The notes below the pieces were generated by a model. It ran no database searches and was not told where the DNA came from. It saw nothing but the letters and a program-made list of their open reading frames with translations. DNA of 64,000 nucleotides, from positions 186,001 through 250,000 of the forward strand of contig JASTWF010000277.1 of NCBI GenBank assembly GCA_030390025.1, read 5' to 3'. This stretch comes from Squalus acanthias (taxonomy: Eukaryota). The position numbers and the translations under genes are program-made. Shown in pieces: positions 14,991 through 64,000 of the stretch. The number at the start of each line of letters is the position of its first letter. The stretch's first letter is position 1.

Positions 14991-15093
14991 AAATATAGAA
15001 ATATAGAAACATAGAAAATAGGTACAGGAGTAAACCATTCGGTCCTTCGAGACTGCACCGCCATTCAATGCGTTCATGGCTGAACATGCTACC

Positions 15094-19021: not shown

Positions 19022-19375
19022 GACTTATCCCTTATGTTACTTTATTACTAAAATTTAAACTTATTTATCTTAGGTCCAGGAGTTAAGTCCCTGAAAACAA
19101 AATATAAAATCGAACCTACCTTTTAAATTCCCTCTACCCCTAATGGTTAGAGGAGGTGGGAGGGTGGGTGTCACTACTAGGGTAGTGTCTCGGCTTTCGC
19201 AACCGCTCCACCTATATACGGGTACCAATGAATTGGCCCCGCCCCCTGCCTTTGAAAAAGCCCGCGAAGCTCTTTCCCCGCTGGGGAAAAAGTCCACGTC
19301 GGTGAGTTTAATGACTCCCCTCAGGCCTCCGCCGCTCCAACCAGGACCGCCCCTCCCTCCCCGCTGCCGACCGCT

Positions 19376-22202: not shown

Positions 22203-23365
22203 GATGTCTGTGATAGTTCCCGGGAGCAGTGTGTGTGATTGGTAGCTGCCTATTTTAGGCAGAGTGATCGGTGTAGAAATGTCTCTGATAGTTCCCGGGA
22301 GCAGTGTGTGTGATTGGTAGCTGCCTATTTTAGGCAGATTGATCACTGCATTAATTTCTCTGACAGTTTTCGGAAGCAGTATGTCTGATTGGTAGCTGCC
22401 TATTTTAGCCAGAGAGATATGTGCAGAAATTTCTCTGCCAGTTCACTGGAGGAGAGCGGGTGATAAAAAGTTGCAGACTGTAGGCAGGGAGATAAGTTTA
22501 GGAAGTTCTCTGACAGTTCCCGTGATGGCAGTGCGCAATTGATGGCTGCAGACTTTCTGCAGAGAGATACATGCTGAAATTCCCGGGAGGAGAGTTTGGG
22601 ATTGGCAGCTGGAGACTGTATACAGAGAGGGAAGTTCAGGTATTTTTCTGCCAGTTCACTGGAGGAGAGTGGGTGATTGGCAGCTGCAGACTGTATACAG
22701 AGAGGGAAGTTAAGGAATTTATCTGCCAGTTCACTGGAGGAGAGTGGATGATTGACAGCTACAGACTGTATACAGAGAGGGAAGTTCAGGTATTTTTCTG
22801 CCAGTTCACTGGAGGAGAGTGGGTGATTGACAGCTGCAGACTGTATACAGAGAGGGAAGTTCAGGAATTTATCTGCCAGTTCACTGGAGGAGAGTGGGTG
22901 ATTGACAGCTGCAGACTGTATACAGAGAGGGAAGTTCAGGTATTTTTCTGCCAGTTCACTGGAGGAGCGAGGGTGATTGACAGCTGCAGACTGTATACAG
23001 AGAGGGAAGTGTAGGAATTTATCTGCCAGTTCACTGGAGGAGAGTGGGTGATTGGCAGCTGCAGACTGTATACAGAGAGGGAAGTTAAGGAATTTATCTG
23101 CCAGTTCACTGGAGGAGAGTGGGTGATTGACAGCTGCAGACTGTATACAGCAAGGGAAGTTCAGGTATTTTTCTGCCAGTTCACTGGAGGAGAGTGGGTG
23201 ATTGACAGCTGCAGACTGTATACAGAGAGGGAAGTTCAGGTATTTATCTGCCAGTTCACTGGAGGAGAGTGGGTGATTGGCAGCTGCAGACTGTATACAG
23301 AGAGGGAAGTTAAGGAATTTATCTGAAGGCTGCCGGGAGGAGAGGGGTGATTGGCAGCTTCAGAT
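22203..23365. repeat. 75-bp minisatellite, variant B grading into variant C
   Basis: B units to about 22420, then C unit CCAGTTCACTGGAGGAGAGTGGGTGATTGACAGCTGCAGACTGTATACAGAGAGGGAAGTTCAGG... Confidence 0.93.
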
Positions 23366-23510: not shown

Positions 23511-23969
23511 TAAATGTAATATAATGCAAAACGAAATTCAATCAGGCGGAAGAAACGAAAAGTCAATGGGTTCTCAACTTAGTTTGATACAAGGCCAAGG
23601 TCGGGGGCTCAAACACCGGACGGAGCACAGAATTTTTTGGGGGGAGCGGGAAAATTCTTATTTTTTTCTAATCTTAAAAATGGAAAGACTGGAAGGGAAA
23701 GTACCGCAATCAGAACAAGGGAACAGCGGATTTTAAATAATTATTCTTGTATTTCAATAAAAAAAAAATTGAACAAATTACAGGGAGAGCTAAATTAAAA
23801 AAAAACACGTTGTTTTTTTAAATAAAACTGTAGTGTTATGAGCACGAGACACAAACATGGCCGACCGCATGTCATGCAAACATTGCCGAAAGAACGTCAA
23901 AAAGCATAGCCGAAATACGTCACATAAACAGGTTGAACGTCTGTCAAACAAAAATGGCCGAGCATAGGC

Positions 23970-24080
23970 CACACAAACATGGCAGACCAGACATCACACA
24001 AACATGGCAGACCAGACATCACACAAACATGGCAGACCAGACATCACACAAACATGGCAAACCAGACATCTCGGAAACAT
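23970..24080. repeat. 25-bp tandem repeat CACACAAACATGGCAGACCAGACAT, about 4 copies
   Basis: Direct tandem copies, with degenerate copies from 23850. Confidence 0.85.
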
Positions 24081-24432
24081 GGCGGACGGCACATATTTGA
24101 GTCAAATGAGGTCTACCATGTTGATATTACGACTCGGAGACTCTGTATGTGAGAGACATTGTCAAAATCTGTGTGTGAGGGATTGGGTCTCAGAGATACT
24201 GTGTGTGAGAGAGTGAGTCTCGAGATCCTGTGTGTCTCGAGTCTGTGTGTAAGTGGTTGAGTTTCTGATTATGTGGTGAGAGATTGAGTCTCAGAGATAA
24301 TGTGTGTGAGAGAGTGTTTCTTGAGTTTGTGTGAGAGAGTGAGTCACAGCTGCTGTGTGTGAGGGAGTAAGTGTCAGAGATACTGTATGTGCGAGAGTGA
24401 GTCTCGAGTCTGTGTTTCAGCCAGTGAGTCGG

Positions 24433-38170: not shown

Positions 38171-38479
38171 GGAAGGACTCGCGAGCAGCAACAAGGAAAC
38201 AGGAGATTCTGGAAACAATTAGCGGCCTGAACTTTCCGGTGTACGAGGCATAAACCGCGTGTGATGAGATTGAACGCCCGCAGAACTGACATGGATGGAA
38301 TGGAAATCGGGAATGTTCACAAAGGCAGAATCCATATCGTCTGTTTTTCACCCCCCAAAAGGTGAAAGTTCCAGCGCCTACTTCCCACAGCACACAAAAT
38401 GAGTAGGGACACATGACGAGTCCAGGAGGTTTACAAAAAAATATTGTTGTAAGACATGGAGACCTCACAATTCGAGCTA

Positions 38480-38760
38480 TCTGGAGCTCCTCCCCACCCC
38501 ACCTGATATCCACAGCTCATCCTCACCCCACCTAATGTTTTCAGTTCCTCCCCACCCCAACTAATATCTTCAGCTCATCTCCGCCCACCTACTAGCTTCA
38601 GCTCCTCCCCACCCCGCCGAATTACTTCATCTTCACCCCACCCCACCTAATATCTGCACCTTCTCCCCAGGCCATCTAATATACTCATCCCCGCCCCACC
38701 CCACCTAATATAATATGGTCCTCCCCACCCCACCAATTATCTTCAGCTGATCTACACCCT
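38480..38760. repeat. About 30-bp C-rich degenerate minisatellite (AGCTCCTCCCCACCCCACCTAATATC)
   Basis: About 9 degenerate tandem copies. Confidence 0.8.
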
Positions 38761-38769
38761 TTAAGCTAC

Positions 38770-39240
38770 AAGGTGCATGTTTACAGGTCTGGAAGATTAG
38801 TAAGGGCAACTGAACGTGTTCTGTTGGTTTAACTTACATGGTGCATGTTTATAGGCCTGTTGGACAATTAAGGGCGAGCGTTCGCCCCCTGATGGTTTAA
38901 GCTACATGGTGCATCTTAACAAGTCTGCAGTATGAGTAAGGGCGAGTGTGCGCCCCCTGGTGGTTTAATGTAGAAAGTGCATATAACCAGGTCTGTAGTT
39001 TGAGTAAGGGCGAGTGTGCGCCCCCTGGTGGTTTAATGTACACAATGCCACTTACCAGGTCTGTAGTGAGCGTAAGGGTGCGTGTGCGCACCCTGCTGGC
39101 TTAATGTACACAATGCATTTTACCAGGTCTGCAGTGAGGGTTGGGGTGAGTGTGCGCTCCTGGACTTAATGTGAACAATGCATTTTACCAGATCTGTAGT
39201 GTGAGTAAGCGCGAGTGTGCGCCCCTGGTGGTTTAATGTG
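38770..39240 (-). promoter_or_regulatory. 68-bp tandem repeat carrying CTCF core motifs (CCACCAGGGGGCGC on minus strand)
   Basis: Perfect GCGCCCCCTGGTGG at 38950-38963 and 39018-39031; variants at 38883, 39086, 39154 and 39219. Confidence 0.7.
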
Positions 39241-41199
39241 GAATGTGCGGTGCTGTTTCATGCAACTTCGAGTTTCAGATCGTGAATTAAATCTTTATAA
39301 AACAGTTGAGGGACCATTACATATTTTACACAGAAATAATTATTTTCCGAAGAGTAATTCTAAAAGCCAATAATTTATTCGACAGTTTGAAGGAATGACT
39401 AACGTGGTTACAGAGTGACGGGGATAACTTTATTAACCTCTGCCCCATTGCAATGAATTTGATGAACTTTCATCTTTTCTCACTTTATAGACTATTTTTA
39501 GGGTCTTGGTAAAAATCTTCAATGTTTATAACACAGGGAACTCAGTGAGAAACTGTTCAGTTTAACAGGGTCCGGGCTGTCTGAAGACTAACAGACAACC
39601 AGTTACACAAGGCCCTGGTTGGGAATCCGGGGAATGTAAGTCTCTGCTAGAAACAGAAGCATCGTGTCGGAAACAAAGTTCAAGTGCCCGCAGAAACAGA
39701 GACTTGCAATGGAAATAAAACTGCCCAGAGTGTAGCGCTCACACATCTGTTTGTTACACCTACACGTTAAAGACTCAAAGCTCTGCACAACTCTGTCGCA
39801 GTAATATCTTGATTCCTAGGAATAGGCAGTAATGCGCTGTCTAAGGCGGCCATCGCTGCTATCCGCCGTCGCCTCGCTCACTCTGGGAACCTGGGAGCAG
39901 CGAAAAATTGATTCGCAAAAATCTGTTTAGAGTTTAGAGTTTGCACATAATTTTACAAAGAAAGAGACATTTTACAGGTGTTTTGATGTATTGCATTATA
40001 TTAATAGTTAGATACAAACTTTAATTATTACTAAAGGGCACTGGGGGAGGGCGCATACAGACGCAAGAATAATTTATTGAGGACACTGCACGTTTATCCT
40101 CCTCTCCGTTCACAGACAAAGACACTGTGGGTTCGGGATCAAGGTGGGGGAATCAGGCACTGTTTGGATGAGGTGCTGTGAACTGTGAAAATTGGGTTTG
40201 ACTGACAGGCCAGGGTTATATGAGGGGAGGCAGAACGAGTGGTCTCTCTATCTGCTCCTCGGTTGTGCTGTGAAGGAAATAGCCATATTCCAAGAAATAC
40301 ATGATCCTATAAACAAATTTGATAATATTAAAACATGACAAACTGGGGTTAAAAATCTAAAAGCCTCAACGACACAAGTCATAAAACAGAAATAAAGGCT
40401 TCTGAGATAAAGATCAGTTGTTAACAAAGTTGCAATGGGAAATGTTTATAAATACAAAGACATGGCCCTATTGAAACAGCAGGCTGGAGGGTCCTCTATG
40501 TCTGAACATTGGAACCAACACAATGGAATGACGGAAGTAAAGTGACAAAATCTAACACGTCGAACAGGTGCACACAACATTAAAAAATCAAGTGCCTTTG
40601 AAAAAATGACCAAGTAAAAGAAATACCTGTCGTTAAATAGTTTTATGTTAAAATTAGAACAAGGAGACATGATTCTTAATATAACCAAGTGAAATAACTA
40701 AGAAATGTAAAGAACACCCTAGATGAAGTGTTTTTGAATTACAAATTGTAAAAATTACCTACAGAGAGACTTTGTAGCTATTACATCAGTAGACGACCCC
40801 AAGCAATTACATTGTTTATGTGTTAAACTTGGAACGCAAAGAGACAGGAGTCTGTGTTACAAACAGCAGACGTGATTTAGAAATTCAATCGAAAGACTTC
40901 CTAAGAATGGCATCAAATAGATAAATCGATAATAAACATAAAAATGATAAGTTATTGAAACACCTAAAGGTAGAGACACAATCTGTTTGCAACAGTTGAA
41001 ACGAAAGTAAGAATAGAAAACAATTCAATAGTGTATCACAAGAGACAATTAGCTTACATTAAGAGAATACTTCAAAGACAATAACACTAAAAAGAGTATA
41101 AAAATAAGAGCTTTTCAGATGAAAAGTCAGAAGTCGCTGGATGGGCAAGCGTTTACAGAAAGTTGACAGAATCCCCACAGTGCAGATAGAGGCCATTTC

Positions 41200-44100
41200 G
41201 GTGGTGCAGTGGGTTATCAATTGCCCTTTCCCCTCTCTCTGGTGGGGGAGAGTGGGTACAGTGGGTTAACAATTGCCCTTTCCCCTCTCTTTGGTGGGGG
41301 AGTGCGGGTACAGTGGCTTAACAACTGCCCTTTCCCGTCTCTCTGATGGGGGAGTGGGTGTACAGTGGGTTAACAATGGCCCTTTCCTCTCTTTCATTTG
41401 GGGAGTGGGGTTACAGTGGGTTATCAATTGCACTTTCCCCTCTCTTTGTTGGGAGAGTGGGGGTACAGTGGGTTAACAATTGCCCCTTCATCTCTCTCTG
41501 GTGGGGGAGTGGGGATACTGTGGGTTAACAATTGCCCTTTCCCCTCTCTTTGGTGGGGGAGTGGGGGTAGAGTGTGTTAACAACTGCCCTTTCCCCTCTC
41601 TCTGGTGGGAGAGTGGGGGTACAGTGGGTTAACAATTGCCCTTTCCCCTCTCTGTTGGAGAGTTGGTAAATAGTGGGTTAACAATTGTCCTTTCCCCTCT
41701 CTCTGGCGGGGGAGTGTGGGTACAGTGGATTAACAATTGTCCTTTCCCCTCTCTCTGGTGGGGGTGTGGGGGTACAGTGAGTTAACACTTGCCCTTTCCT
41801 CTCTCTGTTGGAGAGTGGGGGTACAGTGAGTTAACAATAGCCCTTTCCCTTCTCTGTTGGGGAGTGGGGCTCCAGTGCTTTAACAATTCTCCTTTCCTCT
41901 CTCTCTGTTGGGAAGTGGGGGTACAGTGGGTTAACAAATGTCCTTTCCTCACTCTCTGGTGGGGGAGTGGGGGTACAGTGAATTAACACTTGCTCTCTCC
42001 CCTCGTTCTGGTGGGGACTGGGGTTACAGTGAGTTATCAATTACCCTCTACTCTCTCTGTTGGTGAGTGGGGGTACAGTGGGTTAACAATTGCCCTTTCC
42101 CCTCTCTCTGTGGGGGAGTGGGGGGTACAGTGGGTTAACAACTGCCCTTTCCCCTCTCTCTGGTGGGGGAGTGGGGGTACAGTGGGTTAACAATTGTCCT
42201 TTCCCCTCTCTCTGGTGGGAGAGTGGGGGTACAGTGGGTTAACAATTGCCCTTTCCCCTCTCTCTGTGGGGGAGTGGGGTACAGTGTTTGGACTTTTGCC
42301 GTTTTCTCTCTCTCTGGTGTGGGAGTGGGAGGTTAATTGGGTTAACTATTGCCCTTTTAATTCTCTGGTGCGGGAGTGGGGGTACAGTGGGTTAACACTT
42401 GCTCTCTCACCTCTTTCTGTTGGGGGTGTGTGGGTAAAGTTGGTTAATAATTGCCCTTTCCCCTCTCATTGGTGTGGGAGTGGGGGTGCAGTTGTTTAAA
42501 TTGTCCTTTCCTCTCTTTCTGGTGGGGAGTGGTGGTACACTGAGTCAGCAATTGCCCTTTCCCCTCTATCTGGTGGGCGTTGGGGTTACAGTGAGTTAAC
42601 AATTGTTGTTTCCACTCAATCTGGTGGGGGCGTGGGGTTACAGTGAGTTAACAATTGCCATTTCCCCTCTCTCTGGTAGGGGAGTGGGAGTACAGTGGGT
42701 TAACAATTGCATTGCACCCTCTCTCTGGTGGAGAGTGGGGGTACAGTTGGTTAACATTTGCACTTTCCTCTCTCTGTTGGGGATTGGGGGTACAGTGGGT
42801 TAACAATGGCCCTTTCCTCTCTTTCTGGTGGGGGATTGGGGGGTACAGTGGATTAACAATTGCCCTTTCCCCTCTCTCTGGTGGGGGATTGGGGGGTACA
42901 GTGGGTTAACAATTGCCCTTTCCCCTCTCTCTGGTGGGGGAGTGAGGGTACAGTTGGTTAACAACTGCCCTTTCCCCTCACTCTGGTGGGGGAGCGGAGG
43001 TACAGTGAGTTAACAATTGCCCTTTCCCCTCCCTGTTGGGGAGTGGGGGTACAGTGGTTAACAATTGTTCTTTACTCTCTCTCATGTGTGGAAGTGGGGT
43101 TACAGTGGGTTAGCAATTGCCCTATCCCCTATCTCTGCTGGGGGAGTGCGGGCGCATTGCGTTAACAATTGCCCATTCCTCACTCTCTGGTGGGGGCGTG
43201 GGGGTACAGTTGGTTAACACTTGCTCTCTCCCCTCTTTCTGGTGGCGAGTGGGGGTACAGTGAGTTATCAATTACCCTCTACTCTCTCTGTTGGTGAGTG
43301 GGGGTACAGTGGGTTAACAATTGCCCTTTCCCCTCTCTCTGGTGGGAGTTGTAGTACAGCGGGTTAACAATTGCCCTTGCCTCTCTCTCTGGTGGGGGAG
43401 TGGGGGTACAGCGGGTTAACAATTGCCCTTTCTCCACTCTCTGTTGGTGGATTGTGGGGTACAGTACGTTAACAATTGTCCTTTCCTGTCTCTCTGATGG
43501 GTGAGTGGGGATACAGTGGGTTAACAATTGTCCTTCCCCGTCTCTCTGAGGGGGAGTGGGGTACAGTGTTTGAACATTTGCCCTTTTCTCTCTCTCAGGT
43601 GGGGGAGTGGGAGGTTAATTGGGTTAACTATTGCCCTTTTATCTCTCTGGTGGGGGAGTGGCGGTACAGTGGGTTAACACTTGCTCTCTCAACTATTTCT
43701 GCTGGGGGTGTGGGGTACAGTGGGTTAATAATTGCCATTTCCCCTGTCATTGGTGTGGGAGTGGGGGTAAAGTGGGTTAAAAAATAACCTTTCCCCTCTC
43801 TCTGGTGGGGGAGTGGGAGTACAATTGGTTAACAATTGCCCATTCCCCTCTTTCTGGTTGGGGAGTGGGGGTACAGTAGGTTAACAATTGTCCTTTCCTC
43901 TCTCTGTTGGGGAGTGGGGGTGCAGTGAGTTAACAATTGCCCTTTCCCCTCTATCTGTTGGGGGCGTGGTGTTACAGTGGTTTAAAATTTCCCTTTCCTC
44001 TCTCTCTGGTGGGGGAGTGGGGGTACAGTGGGTTAACAATTGCCCTTTCCTCTCTCTGATGGGGGTGTGGGGGGTACAGTGGGTTAACAATTGCCCGTTC

Positions 44101-47100
44101 ACCTCTCTCTGATGGGGGAGTGGGGGCACAGTGGGTTAACAATTGCCCTTTCACCTCTCTCTGATGGGGGAGTGGGGGTACAGCCGGTTAATAATTGCCC
44201 TTTCCTCTCTCTCAGGTGGGGGATTGTGGGTGCAGTGGTTTAACAATTGCCCTTTCCTCTCTCTCTGCTGGGGGAGTGGAGGTACAGTGGGTTAACAATT
44301 GCCCTTTCACCTATCTCTGCTGGGGGAGTGGGGGTGCATCGGGTTAACTAATGCCCATTCCTCACTCTCTGTTGGGGGCGTGGGTGTACAGTGGGTTAAC
44401 ACTTGCTCTCTCCCCCCTTTCTGGTGGGGGATTGTGGGTACAGTGGGTTAACAATTGTCCTTTCCTCTCTCTCTGGTGGGGGAGTGGCGGTACAGCGAGT
44501 TAACAAATGCCCTTTCCCCTCTCTCTGGTGCGGGAATGGGGTACAATGTTTGAACTATTGCCCTTTCATCTCTCTATGGTGGATAAGTGGGGATACAGTG
44601 TGTTAAAACTTGCTCTCTAACATCATTCTGGCGGGGGAGTGGGTGTACAATTGGTTAACAATTGCCCTTTCCCCTCTCTCTGTTGGGGGAGTGGGGTTAC
44701 AGTGAGTTAACTATTGCCCTTTCCCCTCTCTCTGGTGGGGGAGTGGGGTTACAGTGAGTTAACAATTGTTCTTTCCCCTCTCTCTGGTGGGGGAGTGGGG
44801 GTACAGTGAGTTAACAATTGTTCTTTCCCCTCTCTCTGGTGGGGGTGTGGGGGTACAGTGAGTTAAAAATTGTCCTTTCCCCTCTCTCTGGTGGGGGTGT
44901 GGTGGTACAGTGAGTTAACAATTGTCCTTTCACCTCTCTCTGTTGATGGAGTGGGGGTACAGTGGGTTAACAATGCTCCTTTCCTCTCTCTCTCTGGTTG
45001 GGGAGTGGGGTACAGTGGGTTAACATTTGCCCTTTCCCCTCTCTGAGGTGGGGGAGTGGGGGTACAGTGGTTTAACAATTGCCCTTTCCTCTCTTTCTGG
45101 TTGGGGAGTGGGGTACAGTGGGTTAACAATTGCCCTTTCCCCTCTCTCAGGTGGGGGAGTGGGGGTACAGTGTGTTAACAATTGTCCTTTCCCCTCTCTC
45201 TGGTGGGGTGTTGTTGGTAGAGTGGGTTAACAATTGTTCTTTACTCTCTCTCATGTGTGGAAGTGGGGGTACAGTGGGTTAACAATTGCCTATTCCTCAC
45301 TCTCTGGTGGGGGTGTGGGGGTAAAGTTGGTTAACACTTGCTCTCTCCCCTCTTTCTGGTGGGGAGTGGGTGTACAGTGAGTTATCAATTACCCTCTACT
45401 CTCTCTGTTGGTGAGTGGGGGTACAGTGGGTTTACAATTGCCCTTTCCTCTCTCTCTGGTGGGGGAGGGGGGGTACAGCGGGTTAACAATTGCCCTTTCC
45501 TCTCTCTCTGGTAGGGGAGTGGGGGTACAGTGGGTTAACAATTGACCTTTCCTGTCTCTCTGATGGGTAAGTGTGGATACAGTGGGTTAACAATTGTCCT
45601 TCCCCGTCTCTCTGTGGGGGAGTGGGGTACAGTGTTTGAACTTTTGCCCTTTTCTCTCTCTCTGGTGGGGGAGTTGGAGGTTAATTGGGATAACTATTGC
45701 CCTTTTATCTCTCTGGTGGGGGAGTGGCGGTACAGTGGGTTAACACTTGCTCTCTCAACTCTTTCTGCTGGGGGTGTGGGGGTACAGTGGGTTAATAATT
45801 GCCCTTTCCCCTGTCATTGGTGGGGGAGTGGGGGTAAGGTGGGTTAACAATTGCCCTTTCCCCTCTCTCTGGTGGGGGAGTGGGGGTACAATTGGTTAAC
45901 AATTGTCCTTTCCCCTCTTTCTGGTTGGGGAGTGGGGGTACAGTAGGTTAACAATTGTCCTTTCCTCTCTCTGTTTGGGAGTGGGGGTACAGTGAGTTAA
46001 CAATTATTCTTTCCTCTCTATCTGTTGGGGGCGTGGGGTTACAGTGAGTTAACTATTGCCCTTTCCCCTCTCTCTGGTAGGGGAGTGGGGGTACAGAGGG
46101 TTAAAAATTGCCCTGCTCCCTCTCTCTGTTGGGGAGTGGGGTACAGTGGGTTAACAATTGCCCTTTCCCTCTATCTGGCGGGGCAGTGTGGGTACAGTGT
46201 GTTAACAATTGCCCTTTCCCTCTCTCTGGTGGGGGAGTACGGGTAAAGTGGGTTAACAATTTCCCTTTCCCGACTCTCTGGTTCGGGAGTGGGGTGTAAA
46301 GTGTGTTAACAATTGCCCTTTCCTCTCTCTCTGATGCGGAGTGGAGATACAGTTGGTTAACAATTGTCGTTTCCTCTCTCCCTGATGGTGGAGTGGGGTT
46401 ACAGTGGGTTAAAAATTACCCTTTCCTCTCTCTCATGTGGGGGAGTGGGGGTACAGTGTGTTAACAATTGCCCTTTCCTCTCTCTCTGATGGGGAGTGGA
46501 GATACAGTTGGTTAACAATTGTCGTTTCCTCTCTCCCTGATGGTGTAGTGGGGTTACAGCGGGTTAAAAATTACCCTTTCCCCTCTCTCTGGTGAGGGTG
46601 TGAGGGTACAGTGGGTTAACAATTGTGCTTTCCCCTCTCTCTGTTGGGGGAGTGGGGGCACAGTGGGTTAACAATCGTCCTTTCCGCTCTGTCACTTGGG
46701 GGATTGGGGGTACAGTAGGTTTACAATTGCCCTTTCCTCTCTCTCTGGTGAGGGAGTCAGGGTACAGTGGGTTAACAATGGTCCTTTCCCCTCTCTCTGG
46801 TGGGGGAGTCGGGGTACAGTGGGTTAACAATTGTCCTCTGCCCTCTCTCTGGTGGGGAGTGGGTGTAGATTTGTTTACAATTGCCATTTCACCTCTCTCT
46901 GTTGGTGGAGTGGGGCTACATTGGGTTAAGAACTGCCCTTTCCCCTCTCTCTGTTTGGGGTGTGGGTATAGAGTGTTTTAAAATTGTCCATTCCCCTCTC
47001 TGTGGTGGGGAGAGGGGGTAAATTGTGCTAACAATTGCCCTTTCCTCTCTCTCTGCTTCGGGAGTGGGGGTACAGTAAGTTAACAATTGCCCTTTCCCCT

Positions 47101-50100
47101 CTCTCTGGTTGCGAAAGTGGGTAAATTGTGCTAACAATTGCCCTTTCCTCTCTCTCTGGTTGGGGAGTGTGTGTGCAGTGTTTTAACAATTGTCCTTTCC
47201 CCTCTCTCTGGTGGGAAAGTGGGGGTATAGTGGGTTAACAGTTGCCCTTTCATCTCTCTCTGCTGGGAAAGTGGGGGTATAGTATTTTAACAATTGCCCT
47301 TTCCTCTCTTTCTGGTGGGGGAGTGTGGGTGCAGTGTGTTAACAATTGCCCTTTCCCCTCTCTCTGGTGGGGAGTGGGGGTACAGTGGGTTAACAATTGC
47401 CCTTTCCTCTCTCTCTGGTGTGGAAGTGGAGGGACAGTGGGTTAACAATTGCCCTTTCACCTATCTCTGCTGGGGGAGTGGGGGTGCATTGGGTTAACTA
47501 ATGCCCATTCCTCACTCTCTGGTGGGGGAGTGTGGGTACAGTGGGTTAACAATTGTCCTTTCCTCTCTCTCTGGTGGGGGAGTGGCGGTACAGTGGGGTA
47601 ACAAATGCCCTTTCCCCTCTCTCTGGTGCGGGAATGGGGTACAATGTTTTAACTATTGCCCTTTTTTCTCTCTATGGTGGGGGAGTGGGGATACAGTGGG
47701 TTAATACTTCCTCTCTAACCTCATTCTGGCGGGGGAGTGTGGGTAAAGTGGGTTAACAATGGTCCTTTCCTCTCTCTCTGATGGGGGAGTGTGGATAAAG
47801 TGGGTTAACAATTGCCCTTTCATCTCTTTCTGGTGGGTGAGTGTGGGTGCAGTGTGTTAACAATTGCCCTTTCCCCTCTCTCTGGTGGGAAAGTGGGGGT
47901 ATAGTGGGTTAACAGTTGCCCTTTCCTCTCTCTCTGGTGGGAAAGTGGGGGTATAGTGGTTTAACAATTGCCCTTTCCTCTCATTCTGGTGGGGGAGTGG
48001 AGGTACAGTGGGTTAACATTTACACTTTCCTCTCTCTGTTGGGGAGTGGGGTACAGTTGGTTAACAATTGCCCTTTCCTCTCTCTCTGGCCGGGGAGTAG
48101 GGGTACAGTGGGTTAACGATTTATTCTCTCCCCTCTTCCTGGTGGCGGAGTGGGGTACAGTGCGTTATCAATTGCCCTTTCCCCTCTCTCTGGTGGGGGA
48201 GTGAGGTACAATGGGTTATCAATTGCCCTTTCCCCTCTATCTGGTGGGGAGTTGGGGTACAGTGTGTTAACAACATCCCTTTCCCCTCTCTCTGGTGGGG
48301 GAGTGGGGGTACAGTGAGTTAACAATTGTCCTTTCCTCTCCCTCTGTTGGGGAGTGGGTGTACAGCGGGTTAACAATTGCCCTTTCCCCTCTCTCAGGTG
48401 GGGGAGTGGGGGTACAGTGGGTTAACAATTGTTGTTTCCTCTGTCTCTGGTGGGGGGCTGTGTGTACAGCGGGTTAAAAATTGTAATTTCCCCTCTCCCT
48501 GGTGGGGGAGTGGGGGTACACTGGGTTAACAATTGTCCTTTCCTCTCTCTCTAGTAAACAAGGGGAATTATGATGCCATTAGACGGGAACTGAGTAGGTC
48601 TGATTGGACAACGTTCCTGGGAGGACTGGAGGTAGATAAACAATGGCAAGCATTTAAAGATAGAATGACAAAATTGCAAAAATTGTTTATACCAATCTGG
48701 CATAAAAGGAAATCTAAAAAGGTGACTCAACCGTGGATAACAGGGGAAATTAGAGACAGCATAAAATCCAAAGATAGGGCGTATAAAATAGCCAAAAAAA
48801 GCGCCAGAGCGGAAGATTGGGAACAGTTTAAGATAGAGCAAAGGAGGACAAAGGGCTTAATCAAGAGGGGCAAAATAGCTTACGAAAGCAAGCTGGCGGA
48901 AAATATAAAAACTAACTCCAAAAGCTTTTATAAGTATATCAAGAGGAAAAGACTGGTGAAAACCAAAGTTGGTCCATTGCAGTCAGATACGGGGGAATAT
49001 ATAACGGGAAATAAGGAAATGGCAGACCAACTAAATGCATACTTTGGGTCAGTCTTTACGAAGGAAGACACAAAAAACCTCCCTGGGATATCGGGAAAAA
49101 TAGGGACATTGGCAAAGGAGGAACTGACGCAAATCAATATCTCTAAGGATATGGTGTTAAGGAAGCTAAAGGGAATGAAGGCGGACAAATCCCCAGGGCC
49201 TGATAACATGCATCCTAGGGTACTGATGGAGGTGGCCCTAGAGATAGCGGATGCACTAAGTATGATTTTTCAGAATTCATTAGACTCGGGAACAGTGCCC
49301 ATGGATTGGAGGGTAGCTAACGTTACCACACTATTCAAAAAGGGGGGTAGGGAAAAAGCAGGTAATTACAGACCTGTAAGCCTTACATCAGTTGTGGGCA
49401 AAATGCTGGAGTCCATCATTAAGGATGAAATAGCGGAGCACTTAGCAAATGGGGACAGGATAGGACAGAGTCAACATGGATTTACAAAGGGTAAATCGTG
49501 CTTGACTAATCTATTGGAATTTTTTGAGGGAGTAACTGGTAAAATAGATGGGGGAGAGCCAGTAGATGTGGTGTACCTGGACTTCCAAAAGGCCTTCGAT
49601 AAGGTCCCACATAAAAGATTAGCATGGAAAAGTGAAGCTCATGGGATAAAGGGGAAAGTATTGACGTGGATAGAGAACTGGCTGTCAGATAGAAAACAGA
49701 GAGTTGGAATAAACGGCTCATTTTCTGAATGGCAGGCAGTAACAAGTGGGGTACCACAGGGATCTGTCCTGGGTCCCCAGCTGTTCACAATTTACATTAA
49801 TGACCTGGATCAGGGAGTCGGATGCAGCATTTCCAAATTTGCAGACGACACTAAACTAGGAGGGGGGGTGGGCTCAGAGGAGGAGACCAGGAAGCTCCAG
49901 AGCGATTTGGACAGACTGGGTGATTGGGCGGATAAATGGCAGATGCACTATAATGTGGACAAGTGCGAAGTTATCCACCTTGGGTGCAGGAACGGGAGGG
50001 CAAATTATTATTTAAATGGCAATAAATTGGGAGAGGGGGAAGTACAGAGAGACCTGGGTGTTCTTGTACACCAGTCACTGAAGGCGAGCATGCAGGTGCA

Positions 50101-53032
50101 ACAGGCGGTCAAGAAGGCAAACGGTATGCTGGCCTTCATAGCAAAAGGGTTGGAATACAGGAACAGGGATACCTTGCTGCAGCTGTACAGGGCACTGGTG
50201 AGACCACACCTCGAGTACTGTGTACAGTTTTGGTCGCCTCATCTGAGGAAATATGTTCTTGCCATGGAGGGGGTGCAGCGGCGATTCACCAGGCTGATAC
50301 CAGGAATGGCGGGATTGACCTATGAGGAGAGACTATGTAGTTTAGGGATGTACACACTGGAGTTTAGAAGATTGAGAGGGGACCTCATAGAAGTGTATAA
50401 AATTCTGACAGGTCTAGACAGACTAGATGCAGAAGGAATGTTTCCCTTGGCGGGTGAGAACAGAACTAGAGGACATAATTTAAGGATAAGGGCTAAACCA
50501 TTTAGGACAGAAATGAGGGGGAATTTCTTCACTCAGAGGGTGGTGAACCTGTGGAACTCATTGCCACAGAGGGCAGTGTACGCCAGCTCATTAAATATAT
50601 TTAAGAGGGAATTAGATATATTTCTACAGGCAAAAGGGGTTAAGGGTTACGGAGAGAAGGCGGGGACGGGATACTGAATTGGAGGATCAGCCATGATCTC
50701 ATTAAATGGCGGAGCAGGCTCGAAGGGCCGGATGGCCTACTCCTGCTCCTATCTTCTATGTAATCTATGTAATCTAGTGGGGGATTTGTTGTACAGTGGG
50801 TTAACAATTGTTCTTTGCTCTCTCTCTGGTGTGGAAGTGGGGGTACAGTGGGTTAACAATTGCTCTTTCCCCTATCTCTGGTGGGGGTGTGTGGTACAGT
50901 GGGTTAACAATTGCCCTTTCCCCTATCTCTGGTGGGGAGTGGGAGTACAGTGTATTAACACTTGCTCGCTCCTCTCTTTCTGCTGGGGGTGTGGGGGATC
51001 AGTGGGTTAACAATTGCCCGTTCCTCTCTCTTGTGGGGGAGTGGGGGTACAATTGGTTAACAAATGTCCTTTCCCCTCTATCTTGTTGGGGAGTGGGGGT
51101 ACAGTGAGTTAACAATTGCCCTGCTCCCTCTCTCTGGTGGGGGAGTGTGGATACAATGGGTTAACAATAGCCCTTACTCATCTCTCTGGTGGGGAGTCGG
51201 GGTTCAGTCGGTTAACATTTGACCTTTCCTCTTTCTGTTGGGGAGTGGCGTACAGTGATTTAACAATTGCCCATTCCCCTCTCTGGTGGGGGTGTGGGGG
51301 TACATTGTGTTAACAATTGCCCTTCCCTCTCTCTCTGATGGCGGAGTGGGGGTACAGTGTTTTAACAATGGCCCTTTCCTCTCTCTCTGGTGGGGGAGTG
51401 GGAGGTACAGTTGGTTAACAAGTCCTTTCCCCTTTCTCTGGTGGGGGAGTGGGGGTACAGTGGGCTAACAATTACCCTTTCCCCTCTCTCTGGTGGGGGA
51501 GTGGTGTTACAGTGGGTTAACAATGGTCCTTTCCCCTCTCTCTGATGGCGTATTTGGGGTACAGTGGTTTAAGAGTTGCCGTTTCCCCTCTCTCTGGTGG
51601 GGGAGTGGGGGTACAGTGGATTAACAGTTGCCCTTTCCCCTCTCGCGGATGGGGGAGTGGGGGGTACAGTGGGTTAACAATTGCCCTTCCCCTCTCTCTG
51701 GTTGGAGAGTCGTGGTACAGTGGGTTAACAATTGCCCTTTCCACTCTCTCTGATGGGGGACTGGGGGTAAAGTGTGTTAACAATTGCCGTTTCCCCTCTC
51801 TCTGATGGGGGACTGGGGGTAAAGTGTGTTAATAATTGCCCTCCCCCTCTCTCTGGTGGGAGAGTGCGGTTACAGTGTGTTAACAATGGTCCTTTCCCCT
51901 CTCTCTGATGGGGGAGTGGGGGTACAGTGGGTTAACAATTGCCCTTTCCCCTCTCTCAGAAGGGGGGTGGTGGTACAGTGAGTGAACTATTGCTCTTTTC
52001 TCTCTCTCTGGTGGGGAGTGGAGGTACAGTGAGGTAACAATTGCCCTTTCCCCTCTCTCTGGTTTTGGAGAGGGGTACAGTGAGTTAACTATTGCTCTTT
52101 TCTCTCTCTCTGGTGGGGAGTGGTGGTACAGTGAGGTAACAATTGCCCTTTCCCTCTCTCTGGTTTTGGAGAGGGTACAGTGAGTTAACTATTGCTCTTT
52201 TCTCTCTCTCTGGTGGGGAGTGGTGGTACAGTGAGTTAACAATTGCCCTTTCCCCTCTCTCTGGGGGGGAGTGTGGGTACAGTGGGTTAACAATTGCCCT
52301 TTCCCTCTCTCATGGGGGGAGTGTGTGTACAGTGAGTTAACAATGGCCCTTTCCCCTCTCTCTGGTGGGGGAGTGGGGATACAGTGGTTAACAATTGCCC
52401 TTTCCCCTCTCTCGGGTGGGGGAGTGTGGGTACAGTGGGTTAACAATTGCCCTTTCCCTCTCTCTGATGGGGGAGTGTGGGTACAGTGTGTTAACAATGG
52501 CCTTTCCCCTCTCTCTGGTGGTGAGTGTGTTACAGTGGGTTAACAATTGCCCTTTCCCTCTCTCTGGTGCGGAGTGGGTGTACAGTGAGTGAACTATTGC
52601 CTTTCTCTCTCTCTGGTGGGGAGTGGGGGTACAGTGAATTAACAATTGCCCTTTCCCCTCTCTCTGGTTTTTGAGAGGGTTACAGTGAGTGAACTATTGC
52701 TCTTTTCTCTCTCTCTGGTGGGGAGTGGGGGTACAGTGAGTTAACAATTGCCCTTTCCCCTCTCTCTGGTTTTGGAGAGGGGTACAGTGAGTGAACTATT
52801 GCTCTTTTCTCTCTCTCTGGTGGGGAGTGGGGGTACAGTGAGTTAACAATTGCCCTTTCCCCTCTCTCTGGTTTTTGAGAGGGGTACAGTGAGTGAACTA
52901 TTGCTCTTTTCTCTCTCTCTGGTGGGGAGTGGGGGTACAGTGAGTTAACAATTGCCCTTTCCCCTCTCTCTGGTTTTGGAGAGGGGTAAAGTGAGTTAAC
53001 TATTGCTCTTTTCTCTCTCTCTGGTGGGGAGT
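41200..53032. repeat. About 52-bp G-rich satellite (GTACAGTGGGTTAACAATTGCCCTTTCCCCTCTCTCTGGTGGGGGAGTGGGG)n, interrupted by a CR1
   Basis: Roughly 180 units over 41200-48555 and 50773-53032. Confidence 0.97.
48556..50772 (+). mobile_element. Young 5'-truncated CR1 with an open RT frame of about 700 aa
   Basis: ORF 48533..50677 (start codon lies in the satellite); tail (CTATGTAAT)2; TSD TCTAGT at 48550-48555 and 50773-50778. Confidence 0.95.
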
Positions 53033-53496: not shown

Positions 53497-53805
53497 CTGT
53501 TTCCTTCTGGATGGAATCTCTTATCGCACTCGGAATATCCTGATGGCTCACCACGCAGTAGAACTCATCCCCACTCAGCCAGGCTTGTGTCGAGATGTTG
53601 ATGTTGCTGATCACGCTGTTGGGATCCTCTCCGGGTTGAACGGCACTGTCTCATTTCAGAATCTCCTTTTCTCGAGTCCAGGTCACGGTGACTCCATCAG
53701 GAGCCTTGGACACGACGCAGGTTAAGGTCACCGTCGCCTCCAGTAAGACCTGTTCTAATGACGGTTGCCGAAGTGTAATCACTGGACCGTTGCTTGAGGA
53801 AGGAT
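53497..53805 (-). pseudogene. IGHM: IgM heavy-chain constant exon Cmu3 with premature stop
   Basis: 309-nt phase 1-1 exon, cacag acceptor and gtgag donor; [102 protein letters not shown] matches shark Cmu3; TGA at 53651-53653. Confidence 0.9.
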
Positions 53806-55612: not shown

Positions 55613-55910
55613 TACTTCGGAAGGACACACAAACTGCCTGATTGTCCATTAGAAACAGAGCTAACTCAGGATAAACCTGAGACCAAGGACACCTCACTCA
55701 CTGTCTGACATTACAGCTGAGGGAATCCTTCTTTACAGGCGAAGTTTTGGAATTCTGAACCGTGAGGAATCCCACTTACATGGGAAGAAAACACCAAACT
55801 GCTTGATTGTAAATTAGACAGTGTGCTGTGCTTTGGACTTATTCCAATAAAATCCTGACTCAGATCGGCACTCGACACGGTCTGGAACTTCCAGGGTTTG
55901 TGTCTCTTAC

Positions 55911-56219
55911 CCTGAGAGCTGACGATGTTTCAGCTTTGGGTGACCCCATCATGAGTGACCTGGCAGGTGTAGACCGAGCCGGTGAACCAATCCCCGGCGG
56001 GCACTGTCAGCAGACTGATCGCCGAGAAGATCCCGTTCACTTCAGAGACGGGAGAGGTGACGAAGCCCGAATGCATGAGTTGTCCATTCTTCAGCCAATT
56101 CACGGTCAGTGACTCTGGACGGAAATCCATGATTGAACACACGACGGTTGCATATTTGCTGCTGGTGATTTGGTCCCTGGCACTCCCCGTGAGGATAACA
56201 GTTGGATGGATGGAGTCAT
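55911..56219 (-). pseudogene. IGHM: IgM heavy-chain constant exon Cmu2 with premature stop and mutated acceptor
   Basis: 309-nt phase 1-1 exon; [10 protein letters not shown]...[34 protein letters not shown]...LTVPAGDWF...[19 protein letters not shown] is a C1-set Ig domain matching shark Cmu2; TGA at 55930-55932; donor gtaag intact; acceptor reads ccctaa. Confidence 0.9.
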
Positions 56220-56344: not shown

Positions 56345-57310
56345 CACTGCACAGTATTCTAAGTGTGAAATGGAGACAAGGATTCTGCACAGTATTCTAA
56401 GTATGATATGGAGACCAGGACTCTGCACAGTATTCTAAGTGTGATATGGAGACCACGACTCTGCACAGTATTCTAAGTGAGATATCGAGAGCAGGACTCT
56501 GCACAGTATTCTAAGTGTGATTTAGACACTAGGACTCTGCACAGTATTCTAAGTGTGATATGGAGACCAGGATTCTGCACAGTATTCTAAGTGTGATATG
56601 GAGACCAGGACACTGCACAGTATTTACAGTGTGATATGGAGACCAGGGCTCTGCACAGTATTCGAAGTGTGATATGGAGACTAGGACTCTGCACAGTATT
56701 CTAAGTGTGAGAAAGAGACCAGGACTCTGCACAGTATTCTAAGTGTGATATGGAGACAAGGATTCTGCACAGTATTCAAAGTGTGATATGGAGACCAGGG
56801 CTCTGAGCAGTATTCTAAGTGTGATATGGAGACCAGGACTCTGCACAGTATTCGAAGTGTGATATGGAGACCAGGACTCTGCACAGTATTCTAAGTGTGA
56901 TATGGAGACCAGGACTCTGCACAGTATTCGAAGTGTGATATGGAGACCAGGACTCTGCACAGTATTCGAAGTGTGATGTGGAGACCAGGATCATGTACAG
57001 TATTCTAAGTGTGATATGGAGACCAGAACTGTGCACAGTACTCTAAGTGTGATATGACGACCAGAATTGTGCACAGTAATCTAAGTTTGATATGGAGACC
57101 AGATTTGTGCTCAGTATTTTAAGTGTGATATGGAGACAATAACTTTGCACAGTAATCTAAGTGTGATATGGAGACCAGATTTGTGCACAGTACATTAAGT
57201 GTGATATGGAAACCAGATCTGTGCACAGTACACTAAGTGTGACATGGAGACCTGAACTGTGCAAAGTACACCAAGTGTGATATGGAGTCGAGGACTGTGC
57301 ACTGTACACT
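56345..57310. repeat. 38-bp minisatellite derived from CR1 ORF2
   Basis: About 25 units of GCACAGTATTCTAAGTGTGATATGGAGACCAGGACTCT; minus strand reads HLEYCAESWSPY. Confidence 0.92.
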
Positions 57311-57311
57311 A

Positions 57312-57800
57312 AAGCCCAGAAATTTGGGTCCCCACGGGTGAGTACACGCTGTGTACTCACCCGTAGGGGCACCGGAAGTGCCGGTTTCGCGCATGCACTG
57401 CGCATGCACGGGAAACCGGAACTTCCGGTCTTGTGAAGGAAGTTGTTCGCGGGTCAACCGCGTGGGCCGGGAGAGGCAGCGCGAACGTAGCGAACACTCG
57501 GCTTTTTTTTACAGGTTTCTCCCTGCGGGTAGGTCCCTGGCAGCTGCGCGGCAAAAAGCAGGCGCAAGGCCTGCTTTTAACAAGATAAGTGGTGAATTAA
57601 GTAAAATTAAAACATTTTTTCCACAGATTTATTATTTTTAAATACTTTAAAGAAAGCTAAGTTTATTTTTAGCCACGTTAAAAACTGTAATTATTTTTTT
57701 GAAATGTTCAAATTATTGTTTAAAATAGTGATTTTATGGAATTTATAGTTATTTTAAAAATATGATTTTTGTTGAAATGAACTTAATGAATTTGGGAAAT
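57312..57800. mobile_element. CpG-rich then AT-rich fragment of an unclassified interspersed repeat with an internal palindrome
   Basis: Sharp compositional block between two minisatellites; 18-bp inverted arms at 57371-57429. Confidence 0.45.
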
Positions 57801-60800
57801 GAGCTGTCTGTGTTTTTGTAATCAGCTTTCAATGTCGGTGAATGTTGCTGTCTGAGTCTGTGAATGGATTTGTCTGGGTCTGAAAATGGAGCTGCCTGGG
57901 TCTGTGAATGGAGCTGTCTGGGTCTGTGAATGGAGCTGTCTGGGTCTGTGAATGGAGCTGTCTGGGTCTGTGAATGGAGCTGTCTGGGTCTGTGAATGGA
58001 GCTGTCTGGGTCTGTGAATGGAGCTGTCTGGGTCTGTGAATTGAGCTGTCTGGATCTGTGAATGGAGCTGTCTGGGTCTGTGAATGGAGCTGTCTGGGTC
58101 TGTGAATTGAGCTGTCTGAGTCTGTGAATGGAGCTGTCTGGGTCTTTGAATGGAGCTGCCTGGGTCTGTGAAATGAGCTGTCTGGGTCTGTGAAATGAGC
58201 TGTCTGGGTCTGTGAATGGAGCTGTCAGAGTCTGTGAATGGAGCTGTCTGGGTCTGTGAAATGAGCTGTCTGGGTCTGTGAAATTATCTGTCTGGTTCTG
58301 TGAAATGAACATTCTGAGTCTGTGAATGGAACTGTCTGGGTCTGTGAATGGAGCTGTCTGGGTCTGTGAATGGAGATGACTGGGTCTGTGAATTTAGATG
58401 ACTGAGTCTCCGATTGGAGCTGTACAGGTCTGTGAAATTAATTGTCTGTGTCATGAATGGAGCTGTCTGGGTCTGTTAAATGAACTTTCTGAGTTTGTGA
58501 AATGAGCTGTCTGTGTTTTTGAAATCAGCTTTCCATGTCTGTGAATGTTGCTGTCTGTTTCTCTGAATGTGGCAGTCTGGGTCTGTGAATGGATCTGTCT
58601 GGATCTGTGAATGGAGCTGTCTGGATCTGTGAAATTAAGTTTCGGAGACTGTGAATGGAGCTGTCTGAGTCTGTGAATGCAGCTGTCTGGGTCTGTGAAA
58701 TTAGCTTTCTGAGACTGTGAATGGAGCTGTCTGTTTCTGTGAATGGAGCTGTCTGAGTCTGTGAATGGAGCTGTCTGAGTCTGCAAATGGAGCTGCCTCG
58801 GTCTGTGAATGGATCTGTCTGTGTCTGTGAATTGAGCTGTCTGGGTCTGTGAATGGAGCTGTCTGAGTCTGTAAATGGAGCTCTCTGGGTCTGTGAATGG
58901 AGCTGTCTGGGTCTGTGAATGGTGCTGTCTGGGTCTGTGAATTGAGCAGTCTGGGACTCTGAATGGAGCTGTCTGGGTCTGTGAATGGTGCTGTCTGGGT
59001 CTGTGAATAGAGCTGTCTGTGTCTATTAATAAGTTGTCTGGGTCTGTGAAATGTGCTGTCTGTGTCAGTGAAAGGAGCTGTCTGGGCCTGTGAATGGAAC
59101 TGCCTGTGTCTGTGAATGGAGCTGTCTGGGTCTGTGAAATGAGCTGTCTGAATCTGTGAAATGAGCTGTCTGAATCTGTGAATGGAGCTGTCTGGATCTG
59201 TGAAATGTGCTGTCTGGGTCTGTGAATGGAACTGTCTGAGTCTGTGAATGGAGTTGTCTGGGTCTGTGATTGAAGCTGACTGAGTCTGTGAAATGAGTTG
59301 TCTGATCTGTGAATGGTGATGTCTGGATCTGTGAATGGAGATGTCTCGGTCTGTGATTGGAGCTGTCTGGGTCTGTGACTGGAGCTGTCTGGGTCTGTGA
59401 ATGGAGCTGTCTGGGTTGGTGAATGGAGCTGTCTGGGTCTGTGACTGGAGCTGTCTGGCTCTGTGAATGGATCTGTCTGAGTCTGTCAATGGATCTGTCT
59501 GAGTATGTCAATGGATCTGTCTGGGTCTGTGAATGGAGCTGTCTGGATCTGTGAAATGATCTTTCGGCGTCTGTGAATGGAGCTGTCTTGGTCTGTGAAT
59601 GGAACTGTCTGCGTCTGTGGAAGGAGCTGTCTTGGTCAGTGAATGCGTCTGTGAATGGAGCTGTCTGGGTCTGTGAATGGAGCTATCAGAGTCTGTGAAT
59701 GGAGCTGTCTGGGTCTGTGAAATGAGCTATCTGGGTCTGTGAAATGATCTGTCTGGTTCTGTGAAATGAACATTCTGAGTCTGTTAATGGAGCTGCCTGG
59801 GTCTGTGAATTGAGCTGTCCGAGTCTGTGAATGGAGCTGTCTGGGTCTGTGAATGGAGCTGCATGGGTCTGTGAATGGAGCTGTCTGTGTCATGAATGGA
59901 GCTGTCTGGGTCTGTGAATGGAGCTGTCTGGGTCTGTGAATGAAGCTGTCTGGGTCTGTGAAAGAAGCTGTCTGGGTCTGTGAAAGGAGCTGTCTTGGTC
60001 TTTGAATGGAGCTGCCTGGGTTTGTGAATGGAGTTGTCTGGGTCTGTGAATGGAGCTGTCTGAGTCTGTAAATTGAGCTGTCTATGTCTGTAAATGCAGC
60101 TGTCTGGGTCTGTAAATGGAGCTGTCTGGGTTTGTGAATGGAGTTGTCTGGGTCTGTGAATGGAGCTGAGTCTGTGAATGGATCTGTCTTGGTCTGTGAA
60201 TGGAGCTGTCTGGATCTGTGAAATGAACTTTCGGAGTCTGTGAATTAAACTGTCTGGGTCTGTGAATGGAACTGTCTGTGTCTGTGAATGGTTTTATCTA
60301 GTTCTCTGAAATGAAATTTCTGAGTCTGTGAATGGAGCTGTCTGGGTCTGTGAATGGAGCTGTCTGGGTCTGTGAATGGAGATGACTGGGTCTGTGAATT
60401 TAGATGACTGAGTCTCCGATTGGAGCTGTACAGGTCTGTGAAATTAATTGTCTGTGTCATGAATGGAGCTGTCTGGGTCTGTTAAATGAACTTTCTGAGT
60501 TTGTGAAATGAGCTGTCTGTGTTTTTGAAATCAGCTTTCCATGTCTGTGAATGTTGCTGTCTGTTTCTCTGAATGTGGCAGTCTGGGTCTGTGAATGGAT
60601 CTGTCTGGATCTGTGAATGGAGCTGTCTGGATCTGTGAAATTAAGTTTCGGAGACTGTGAATGGAGCTGTCTGAGTCTGTGAATGCAGCTGTCTGGGTCT
60701 GTGAAATTAGCTTTCTGAGACTGTGAATGGAGCTGTCTGTTTCTGTGAATGGAGCTGTCTGAGTCAGTGAATGGAGCTGTCTGAGTCTGCAAATGGAGCT

Positions 60801-63800: not shown

Positions 63801-64000
63801 CTGTAAAGGGAACTGTCTGGGTCTCTGAATAGAGCTGTCTGTGTCTGTGAATTGAGCTGCCAGAGTCTGTAAATGCAGTTGTCTGGGTCTGTGAATAGAG
63901 CTGTCTGAGTCTGTAAATGGAGCTGTCTGGGTCTGTAAATGGAGCTGTCTGTGTCTGTGAATGGAGCTGCCAGAGTCTGTAAATGGAGCTGTCTCAGTCT
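57800..64000. repeat. 22-bp AGCT-rich minisatellite (GAATGGAGCTGTCTGGGTCTGT)n, running off the window end
   Basis: Roughly 280 units; includes a 2006-bp higher-order duplication. Confidence 0.97.

Follow-up and report, generated by a model that had tools for sequence, protein, structure and literature searches.

A partly decayed tandem array of candidate two-part CTCF sites beside an IgM pseudogene fragment in Squalus acanthias

The DNA analysed here, a stretch of 64,000 nucleotides from Squalus acanthias referred to as the window, consists largely of repeats, with tandem repeats accounting for 37% and LINE sequence for 32% of its length (69% together). Two IgM constant-region exons are found on its minus strand. 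A Cmu3 pseudo-exon (53498..53803) shows 70% identity to Heterodontus francisci IgM (match 53803-53501), and a Cmu2 pseudo-exon (55910..56219) shows 68% identity to Heterodontus IgM (match 56217-55912) and matches the Pfam C1-set domain (E=1.3e-18). The named protein matches of these exons come from Heterodontus, Scyliorhinus, Chiloscyllium and nurse shark. Both exons contain an in-frame TGA (53651-53653 in Cmu3, 55930-55932 in Cmu2), and the inferred splice acceptor of Cmu2 reads AA, not AG. Searches with seven named shark IgM chains, and with an HMM built from them, detected no V, Cmu1, Cmu4, secretory tail or membrane exon in the window, where two isolated RSS-like matches occur without forming pairs. 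The V-D-D-J-Cmu1-4-TM organisation of a shark IgM minilocus is not seen in the window; its 5' parts could lie beyond base 64000. The absence of Cmu4 and TM indicates that a deletion occurred in this IgM gene, and the locus reads as an IgM pseudogene fragment of two exons. IgM pseudogenes have been described in the nurse shark (PMC2435157).

On the 3' side of these exons lies a 68-bp minisatellite (38757..39250), the subject of this analysis. The first-pass annotation had placed it downstream of a shark IgM cluster whose Cmu exons were 14 kb away. The distance holds, at 14,247 bp between Cmu3 and the array, and Cmu exons are indeed present, but the cluster is reduced to two exons, Cmu2 and Cmu3, both interrupted by a stop codon. 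Since the neighbouring IgM gene is broken and truncated, the array is not necessarily its native 3' flank. Of the intervening DNA, 11,827 bp (11.8 of 14.2 kb) are taken up by a 51/52-bp satellite (41203..53029, minus strand, identified with TRF, about 187 copies) and the LINE fragment that splits it (48554-50674), leaving approximately 2.4 kb. The satellite occupies the place expected for Cmu4 and the membrane exons. No TM2-like exon was detected between Cmu3 and the array, and a candidate TM or TM2 exon near 39.9-40.3 kb was discarded after a search that gave no match to Ig membrane exons. The same segment (39900-40330, minus strand) presents a good acceptor-like splice site near 40270 and an AATAAA at 40078, and resembles a terminal exon located some 830 bp upstream of the array.

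Leftward of the array, searches of the window revealed neither an Ig segment nor any other protein-coding exon. Pfam searches covered 141 of the 204 non-repeat stop-to-stop frames of at least 45 aa, together with four LINE frames, and returned only B-box (E=0.0016) and DUF2616 (E=0.0068) matches, both deemed noise; the 63 frames omitted correspond to the CT-rich region at 1979-9900, LINE-adjacent frames and the Cmu exons. No RNA genes were found in the window by Rfam gathering score or ARAGORN, and a sobemovirus hit that stayed below threshold (27.6 versus 55 bits) was put down to chance. A search for exact 40-nt matches in GTDB genomes yielded 0, as expected for animal DNA.

TRF reports a tandem repeat with a 68-bp period at 38821-39239 (5.5 copies, 80% matches). 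Phased alignment from 39250 down to 38779 resolves seven full units of 65-68 bp (u1 to u7) and a partial eighth (u8), which lacks a core and ends at a 29-bp minisatellite. The CTCF motif lies inside the repeat unit and has one orientation in every copy, with all cores on the minus strand. The array occurs once in the window, and it is old, since its units share only 51-84% pairwise identity.

Cores were scored with a reconstructed version of the JASPAR matrix MA0139.1, and every matrix p-value given here rests on that version. The exact 14-mer CCACCAGGGGGCGC occurs twice on the minus strand, at 38950-38963 in u5 (38915-38982) and at 39018-39031 in u4 (38983-39050). The u5 core (score 19.5, p 1.7e-7) forms part of the best two-part site of the array (38950..38981), with TGCAC located 13 nt upstream; u4 has the same perfect core, and its upstream element is altered to GGCAT. 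Medium cores are present in u3 (39051-39118; site at 39086..39117, score 12.8, p 1.1e-5, TGCAT 13 nt upstream) and u6 (38847-38914; site at 38882..38913, score 11.0, p 2.7e-5, TGCAC 13 nt upstream). The remaining three cores are broken. In u2 (39119..39183), which keeps TGCAT, a 3-base deletion and substitutions bring the score to about -6, and the decayed core of u7 (38779..38846), which keeps TGCAC, scores -6.7. The core of u1 (39184-39250; core 39219..39231) is one G short in its G run and scores 0.4, so that it is probably unbound, barring a homopolymer sequencing error. On this point, a minus-strand LINE elsewhere in the window (15097-17772 and 18080-19024) retains an endonuclease/reverse-transcriptase frame of 892 aa without interruption, along with a GDSL-esterase-type ORF1, which suggests a young insertion and an accurate sequence, and thus makes the one-base loss in u1 more likely to be real.

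Four of the seven units hence pass this matrix at p<1e-4 and two at p<1e-6 (scores 19.5, 19.5, 12.8 and 11.0). Window-wide, the two perfect cores are the only positions to reach p<1e-6, whereas the p<1e-4 threshold returns 45 hits: four in the array, 35 in the 51/52-bp satellite and six scattered. The satellite hits lie on the same strand as the array, but a far larger CTCF array there was ruled out: their scores range from 8 to 11, the GC end of the core is missing, and TGTAC is separated from the core-like start by about 10 nt. The 35 weak hits show that the p<1e-4 cut-off over-calls repeats. Among the 17 tandem arrays scanned, scores above 11 were obtained only in the 68-bp array.

The core was further compared with chance expectation. 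The degenerate core consensus is expected 0.05 times per window, and under an order-3 Markov model fitted to the window minus its main arrays a score of at least 19.4 was reached at 26 of 79.9 million positions. None of those 26 positions carried TGCA at the expected spacing. A chance origin of the core was ruled out both by this null model (0.04 occurrences per window) and by shuffling, with two consensus matches in 0 of 100 shuffles. Allowing one mismatch, the three core matches in the window are unremarkable against an expectation of 0.97, with eight of 100 shuffles reaching three.

The upstream element provides a second line of evidence. TGCA[C/T] followed by 13 nt and the core position is found in five of the seven full units (u2, u3, u5, u6 and u7) and in the partial u8, and it is joined to a usable core in u3, u5 and u6. 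The corresponding instances of TGCA[C/T], 13 nt and a core-like start (38887-38913, 38955-38981 and 39091-39117) compare with 0.07 expected and were not matched in any of 100 shuffles. TGCA itself occupies 0.5-0.65% of window positions, for a chance expectation of about 1% over two spacings. Only one of the two perfect cores, that at 38950, is accompanied by TGCA, and u1 reads CGCAC at the position of the upstream element. Beyond TGCA the element is poorly matched in most units, and only u5 fits well, with 7/9 matches to TGCAGTTCC, the upstream motif printed in PMC11194110. The first-pass annotation had described a 68-bp repeat with about six CTCF cores, two of them perfect and on the minus strand, and three named copies with TGCA[C/T] 13 nt upstream. 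The repeat, the perfect pair and the spaced upstream words all withstood analysis; repeated cores do exist, but their number had been overstated, the seven units containing two perfect, two medium and three broken ones.

A two-part CTCF motif has been described in 33-bp and 34-bp forms, is found at between one quarter and one third of the sites bound in mammals and is linked to stronger peaks (PMC3368268). The CTCF test sites printed in PMC11194110 consist of TGCAG, 12 nt and the core; by our own count, a 12-nt gap would correspond to the 33-bp form and the 13-nt gap of the array to the 34-bp form. The two-part motif is reported as unchanged across lamprey, chicken and human (PMC5504073), and sharks possess a broadly expressed CTCF with 11 fingers (PMC7471279). 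Inward-oriented CTCF motifs have been described at skate TAD borders (PMC10115646), and a 2026 preprint dates CTCF loop blocking to the origin of jawed vertebrates or before (10.64898/2026.10.19.759930). The array shares with the two-part (M1+M2) vertebrate site (PMC3368268, PMC5504073) the perfect core, the TGCA spacing of the 34-bp form and the order of the parts. It departs from it in that the second half of its upstream element is weak except in u5 and in that the site recurs every 68 bp. The array copies share descent from one unit and statistically represent one event, so that significance concerns the founding unit. Given the rarity of such scores under the null model, the presence of TGCA at the right spacing, the conservation of the motif from lamprey to human and the existence of CTCF in sharks, it is very probable that this unit began as a true CTCF site.

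The copies were also examined for preferential conservation. Selection on the cores was not demonstrated by three tests. Mismatch to the consensus was 18.4% in the 14 core columns versus 19.1% in the other 50 (p=0.56), in a permutation over seven units that makes for a weak test. A neutral star model, in which the consensus was mutated at each unit's own rate outside the motif, yielded 2.8 passing units on average, with four or more passing units (P=0.28) and two or more perfect ones (P=0.10) both compatible with neutrality. Removing the dead units u2 and u7 lowered core mismatch to 7% versus 17% (p about 0.05), a circular post-hoc step that we discounted. Hints of selection beyond a neutral origin are the core CpG, intact in all seven units while a second CpG has decayed in three, probably through two events, and the low mismatch of the four TGCA columns (7.1%, p=0.13 by the same weak seven-unit permutation). 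The observed/expected CpG ratio reaches 0.59 within the array and 0.63-0.73 on either side of it; the window as a whole has 0.38 and the adjacent satellite 0.11, a difference suggesting that methylation decay has been milder at the array and its flanks. The array is not a CpG island, since its GC content is only 0.49. Methylation at core position 2 is known to affect CTCF binding (PMC6600276). The array cores read CA at that position, and binding-relevant methylation there is unlikely because position 2 precedes an A.

The orientation of the array bears directly on its possible function. The upstream element followed by the core reads toward lower coordinates, which is the direction of Ig transcription, and the array shares the minus strand with the Cmu exons and is located 3' of them. 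We take module 1 of the CTCF motif to be this upstream element. With forward CTCF sites defined as modules 1-4, and forward promoter sites looping to downstream reverse sites (PMC7087399), the array motifs face away from the Cmu exons, as a caveat in the first-pass annotation had correctly stated.

The proposal in that annotation of a super-anchor finds no support if understood in the sense of the mouse 3'Igh CBEs. Like those elements, the array comprises several same-orientation motifs 3' of heavy-chain constant exons (PMC7826415, PMC10293834). The ten consecutive mouse CBEs insulate class switching (PMC7826415), are oriented convergently with both IGCR1 CBE2 and the VH CBEs, and thus face into the locus (PMC10293834), following an enhancer and an active gene. 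The array, in contrast, faces away, has two strong and two medium sites in place of some ten intact ones, displays no significant preferential conservation and follows a broken, two-exon pseudogene, not a complete working heavy-chain locus. The mouse elements that, like the array, point along Ig transcription are IGCR1 CBE2 and the VH-associated CBEs (PMC10293834); mouse IGCR1 consists of two divergent sites located between V and D, whereas the window contains no V, D or J segment. The broader idea of a minisatellite-amplified two-part CTCF motif that could insulate is supported. CTCF insulation is reported to be orientation-independent (PMC7087399, PMC10293834) and medium motifs gain ChIP signal when grouped (PMC10497529), so that the array could still insulate.

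Tandem repeats that carry a CTCF site are known from other systems, and the mouse DXPas34 repeat is a short-unit precedent. In the DXZ4 macrosatellite (PMC3491370, PMC3287207) and the 1q23.3 tRNA VNTR (PMC4041453), as in the array, the site lies within the unit and expansion generates a same-orientation series, for which a boundary role has been proposed; their units are homogeneous and measure 3 kb and 7.3 kb, whereas that of the array spans 68 bp, is old and has partly decayed. Clustered motifs within one CTCF peak and tandem CTCF insulators (PMC10497529, PMC7087399) likewise combine strong and medium motifs within a few hundred bases, but these are mammalian and their binding and insulation have been measured. 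The human 61-29-37 subtelomeric repeats were also considered as a parallel and set aside: only the 29-bp period is common, and CTCF is not placed inside the 61-bp unit in the portion of the source text available.

The reading that we favour, and to which we give a little better than an even chance, is that the array is an amplified, partly decayed two-part CTCF site acting as a local boundary of a known kind, its link to Ig being incidental. Under this interpretation, one genuine two-part site, with a core bound by zinc fingers 4-7 and an upstream element bound by fingers 9-11, would have been caught in a 68-bp unit that was multiplied long ago by slippage or unequal exchange, as with the other minisatellites of the window, and that has since partly decayed. 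An ordinary origin of the multiplication is favoured by the repeat-rich context, given the share of the window taken up by tandem repeats and LINEs and the presence of other minisatellites that also multiply factor-like words. Binding of CTCF to u4 and u5, and more weakly to u3 and u6, is a prediction in which we place considerable confidence, and these units would merge into one broad peak. The 68-bp pitch exceeds the footprint of about 40 bp, so that neighbouring units could be occupied together. As all sites read upstream element and then core toward lower coordinates, the array would be expected to stall cohesin arriving from the left, to anchor loops leftward and to insulate only partly in the other direction. 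The bound cluster would thus probably constitute a modest, polar loop-extrusion barrier, or local boundary. The region is satellite-dense, and its chromatin may be closed.

Such chromatin is central to an alternative in which the motifs would be present yet unbound or ineffective, as an inert relic buried in methylated satellite and LINE chromatin. The repeat content of the window fits this reading, as do the loss of three of the seven cores, a pattern of decay compatible with neutrality, and the fact that no intact gene needing insulation was found in the window. Against these points stand the persistence of two perfect cores, one of them with its upstream element, and the CpG ratios of the array and its flanks, which exceed those of the window and the adjacent satellite. 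We regard inertness as unlikely, though deserving of serious consideration.

The boundary could instead serve the Ig miniloci, an outcome that we consider improbable even when both Ig-linked readings are pooled. In the first of these, itself distinctly doubtful, the array would be a built-in boundary of the shark IgH miniloci, copied with each cluster and comparable to an IGCR1 CBE2 placed between head-to-tail clusters and not to a 3'CBE. It would prevent cohesin-driven RAG scanning that starts from the J of the next cluster, as well as the enhancer reach of that cluster, from extending back into this one, and so help to keep rearrangement within each minilocus. Its location 3' of Cmu on the same strand, the short distance to Cmu3 that remains once satellite and LINE are removed, the age of the array and the retention of the core CpG all accord with this proposal. 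Shark IgH rearranges within miniloci that lie at least 120 kb apart (PMC2435157), a spacing at which the empty 38 kb left of the array leaves room for a second cluster, and IGCR1 CBE2, which faces downstream, helps to block RAG scanning in the mouse (PMC10293834). On the other hand, the IgM gene is a fragment devoid of Cmu4 and membrane exons, of which the array may not be the native flank, the leftward part of the window yielded no Ig segment or other coding exon, and core conservation is not significant. Furthermore, shark V, D and J lie within 2 kb, and locus contraction is inferred to play no major part (PMC2435157).

The second Ig-linked reading, which we judge highly unlikely, would make the array an equivalent of the 3'Igh CBEs, closing off the domain either of the present IgM gene or of a leftward Ig cluster in the opposite orientation. 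It draws on the several same-orientation sites 3' of Cmu, on the mouse precedent of ten consecutive insulating CBEs at that position (PMC7826415) and on the ability of CBEs to impede extrusion in either orientation (PMC10293834). The orientation of the array relative to the gene is nonetheless opposite to that of the mouse elements, its two strong sites fall within about 80 bp instead of forming ten separate elements, the gene itself is dead, and the window shows no Ig cluster on the opposite strand.

Two further readings have little to recommend them. CTCF-BORIS heterodimers are recruited where motifs cluster, and such clusters can turn into start sites (PMC10832218), and catshark CTCFL is testis-biased (PMC7471279), but a germline 2xCTS-like site that CTCF and CTCFL/BORIS bind jointly, and that serves as a testis promoter and not as a boundary, is very hard to reconcile with the lack of any detected downstream coding exon and with a GC content short of a CpG island. 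The idea that the array is the internal repeat of an unrecognised transposon spreading CTCF sites has precedents in lamprey, where 72% of CTCF peaks overlap repeats (PMC5504073), and in mammals, where sites have spread by retrotransposition (PMC3368268), but is barely credible for an array that lies outside the LINE segments, has no second copy in the 64-kb window and shows neither convincing terminal inverted or long direct repeats in its flanks nor a tRNA-like head.

How shark IgH miniloci stay autonomous has been posed as an open question (PMC2435157), and a literature search, judged by titles and the beginnings of abstracts and with most subscription papers outside its scope, found nothing on CTCF at the Ig loci of cartilaginous fish. 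It is a rather slim prospect that a 3' downstream-facing CTCF array forms part of the duplicated IgH minilocus unit in cartilaginous fish, with this copy decaying beside a dead cluster. If true, such an array would give a DNA-level reason why up to 200 clusters rearrange independently. Should the 68-mer mark Ig clusters, CTCF fencing of antibody loci would reach back to the first jawed vertebrates, with an orientation that differs from that of the mouse 3' end; should it not, the array would be an ordinary, though neat, minisatellite multiplying a CTCF site. The evidence in hand does not tie the array to antibody genes, and the array reads as a CTCF-bearing tandem repeat, a kind already known.

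Several other repeats of the window present features of their own. The 29-bp minisatellite abutting the array (38478..38748, minus strand, 9.4 copies, 71% matches) has no CTCF match and is G-rich on the Ig-sense strand, where GGGGT occurs eight times and GAGCT four times in 271 bp (29.5 and 14.8 per kb, versus 0.88 and 0.75 window-wide). Both words are characteristic of switch regions in mammals; the sequence at 38478-38748 yielded no canonical G-quadruplex pattern. Factor-like words are multiplied by several other arrays of the window. Related 75-bp minisatellites at 12306-13389, 14223-14994 and 22204-23364 contain TGATTGACAG 17 times and TGATTGGTAG 12 times, which we take to be PBX/PREP-like and CCAAT-box-like words, respectively, and 25-bp repeats at 11526-11655 and 23852-24087 carry a CAAACATGGC-type word, presumably YY1-like. 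Upstream of Cmu2, at 57300-57600, a CpG-rich, near-palindromic element presents two opposed CCGGAAGT words, which we assume to be ETS-like, and is possibly a small transposon. A 22-bp satellite at 57834-64000, where Cmu1 might be expected, contains an internal block duplication with a 2006-bp offset (e.g. 58578 and 60584). Lastly, the right flank of the array includes a 98-bp interspersed repeat fragment (39771-39868) that recurs, inverted and 81% identical, at 11260-11357.
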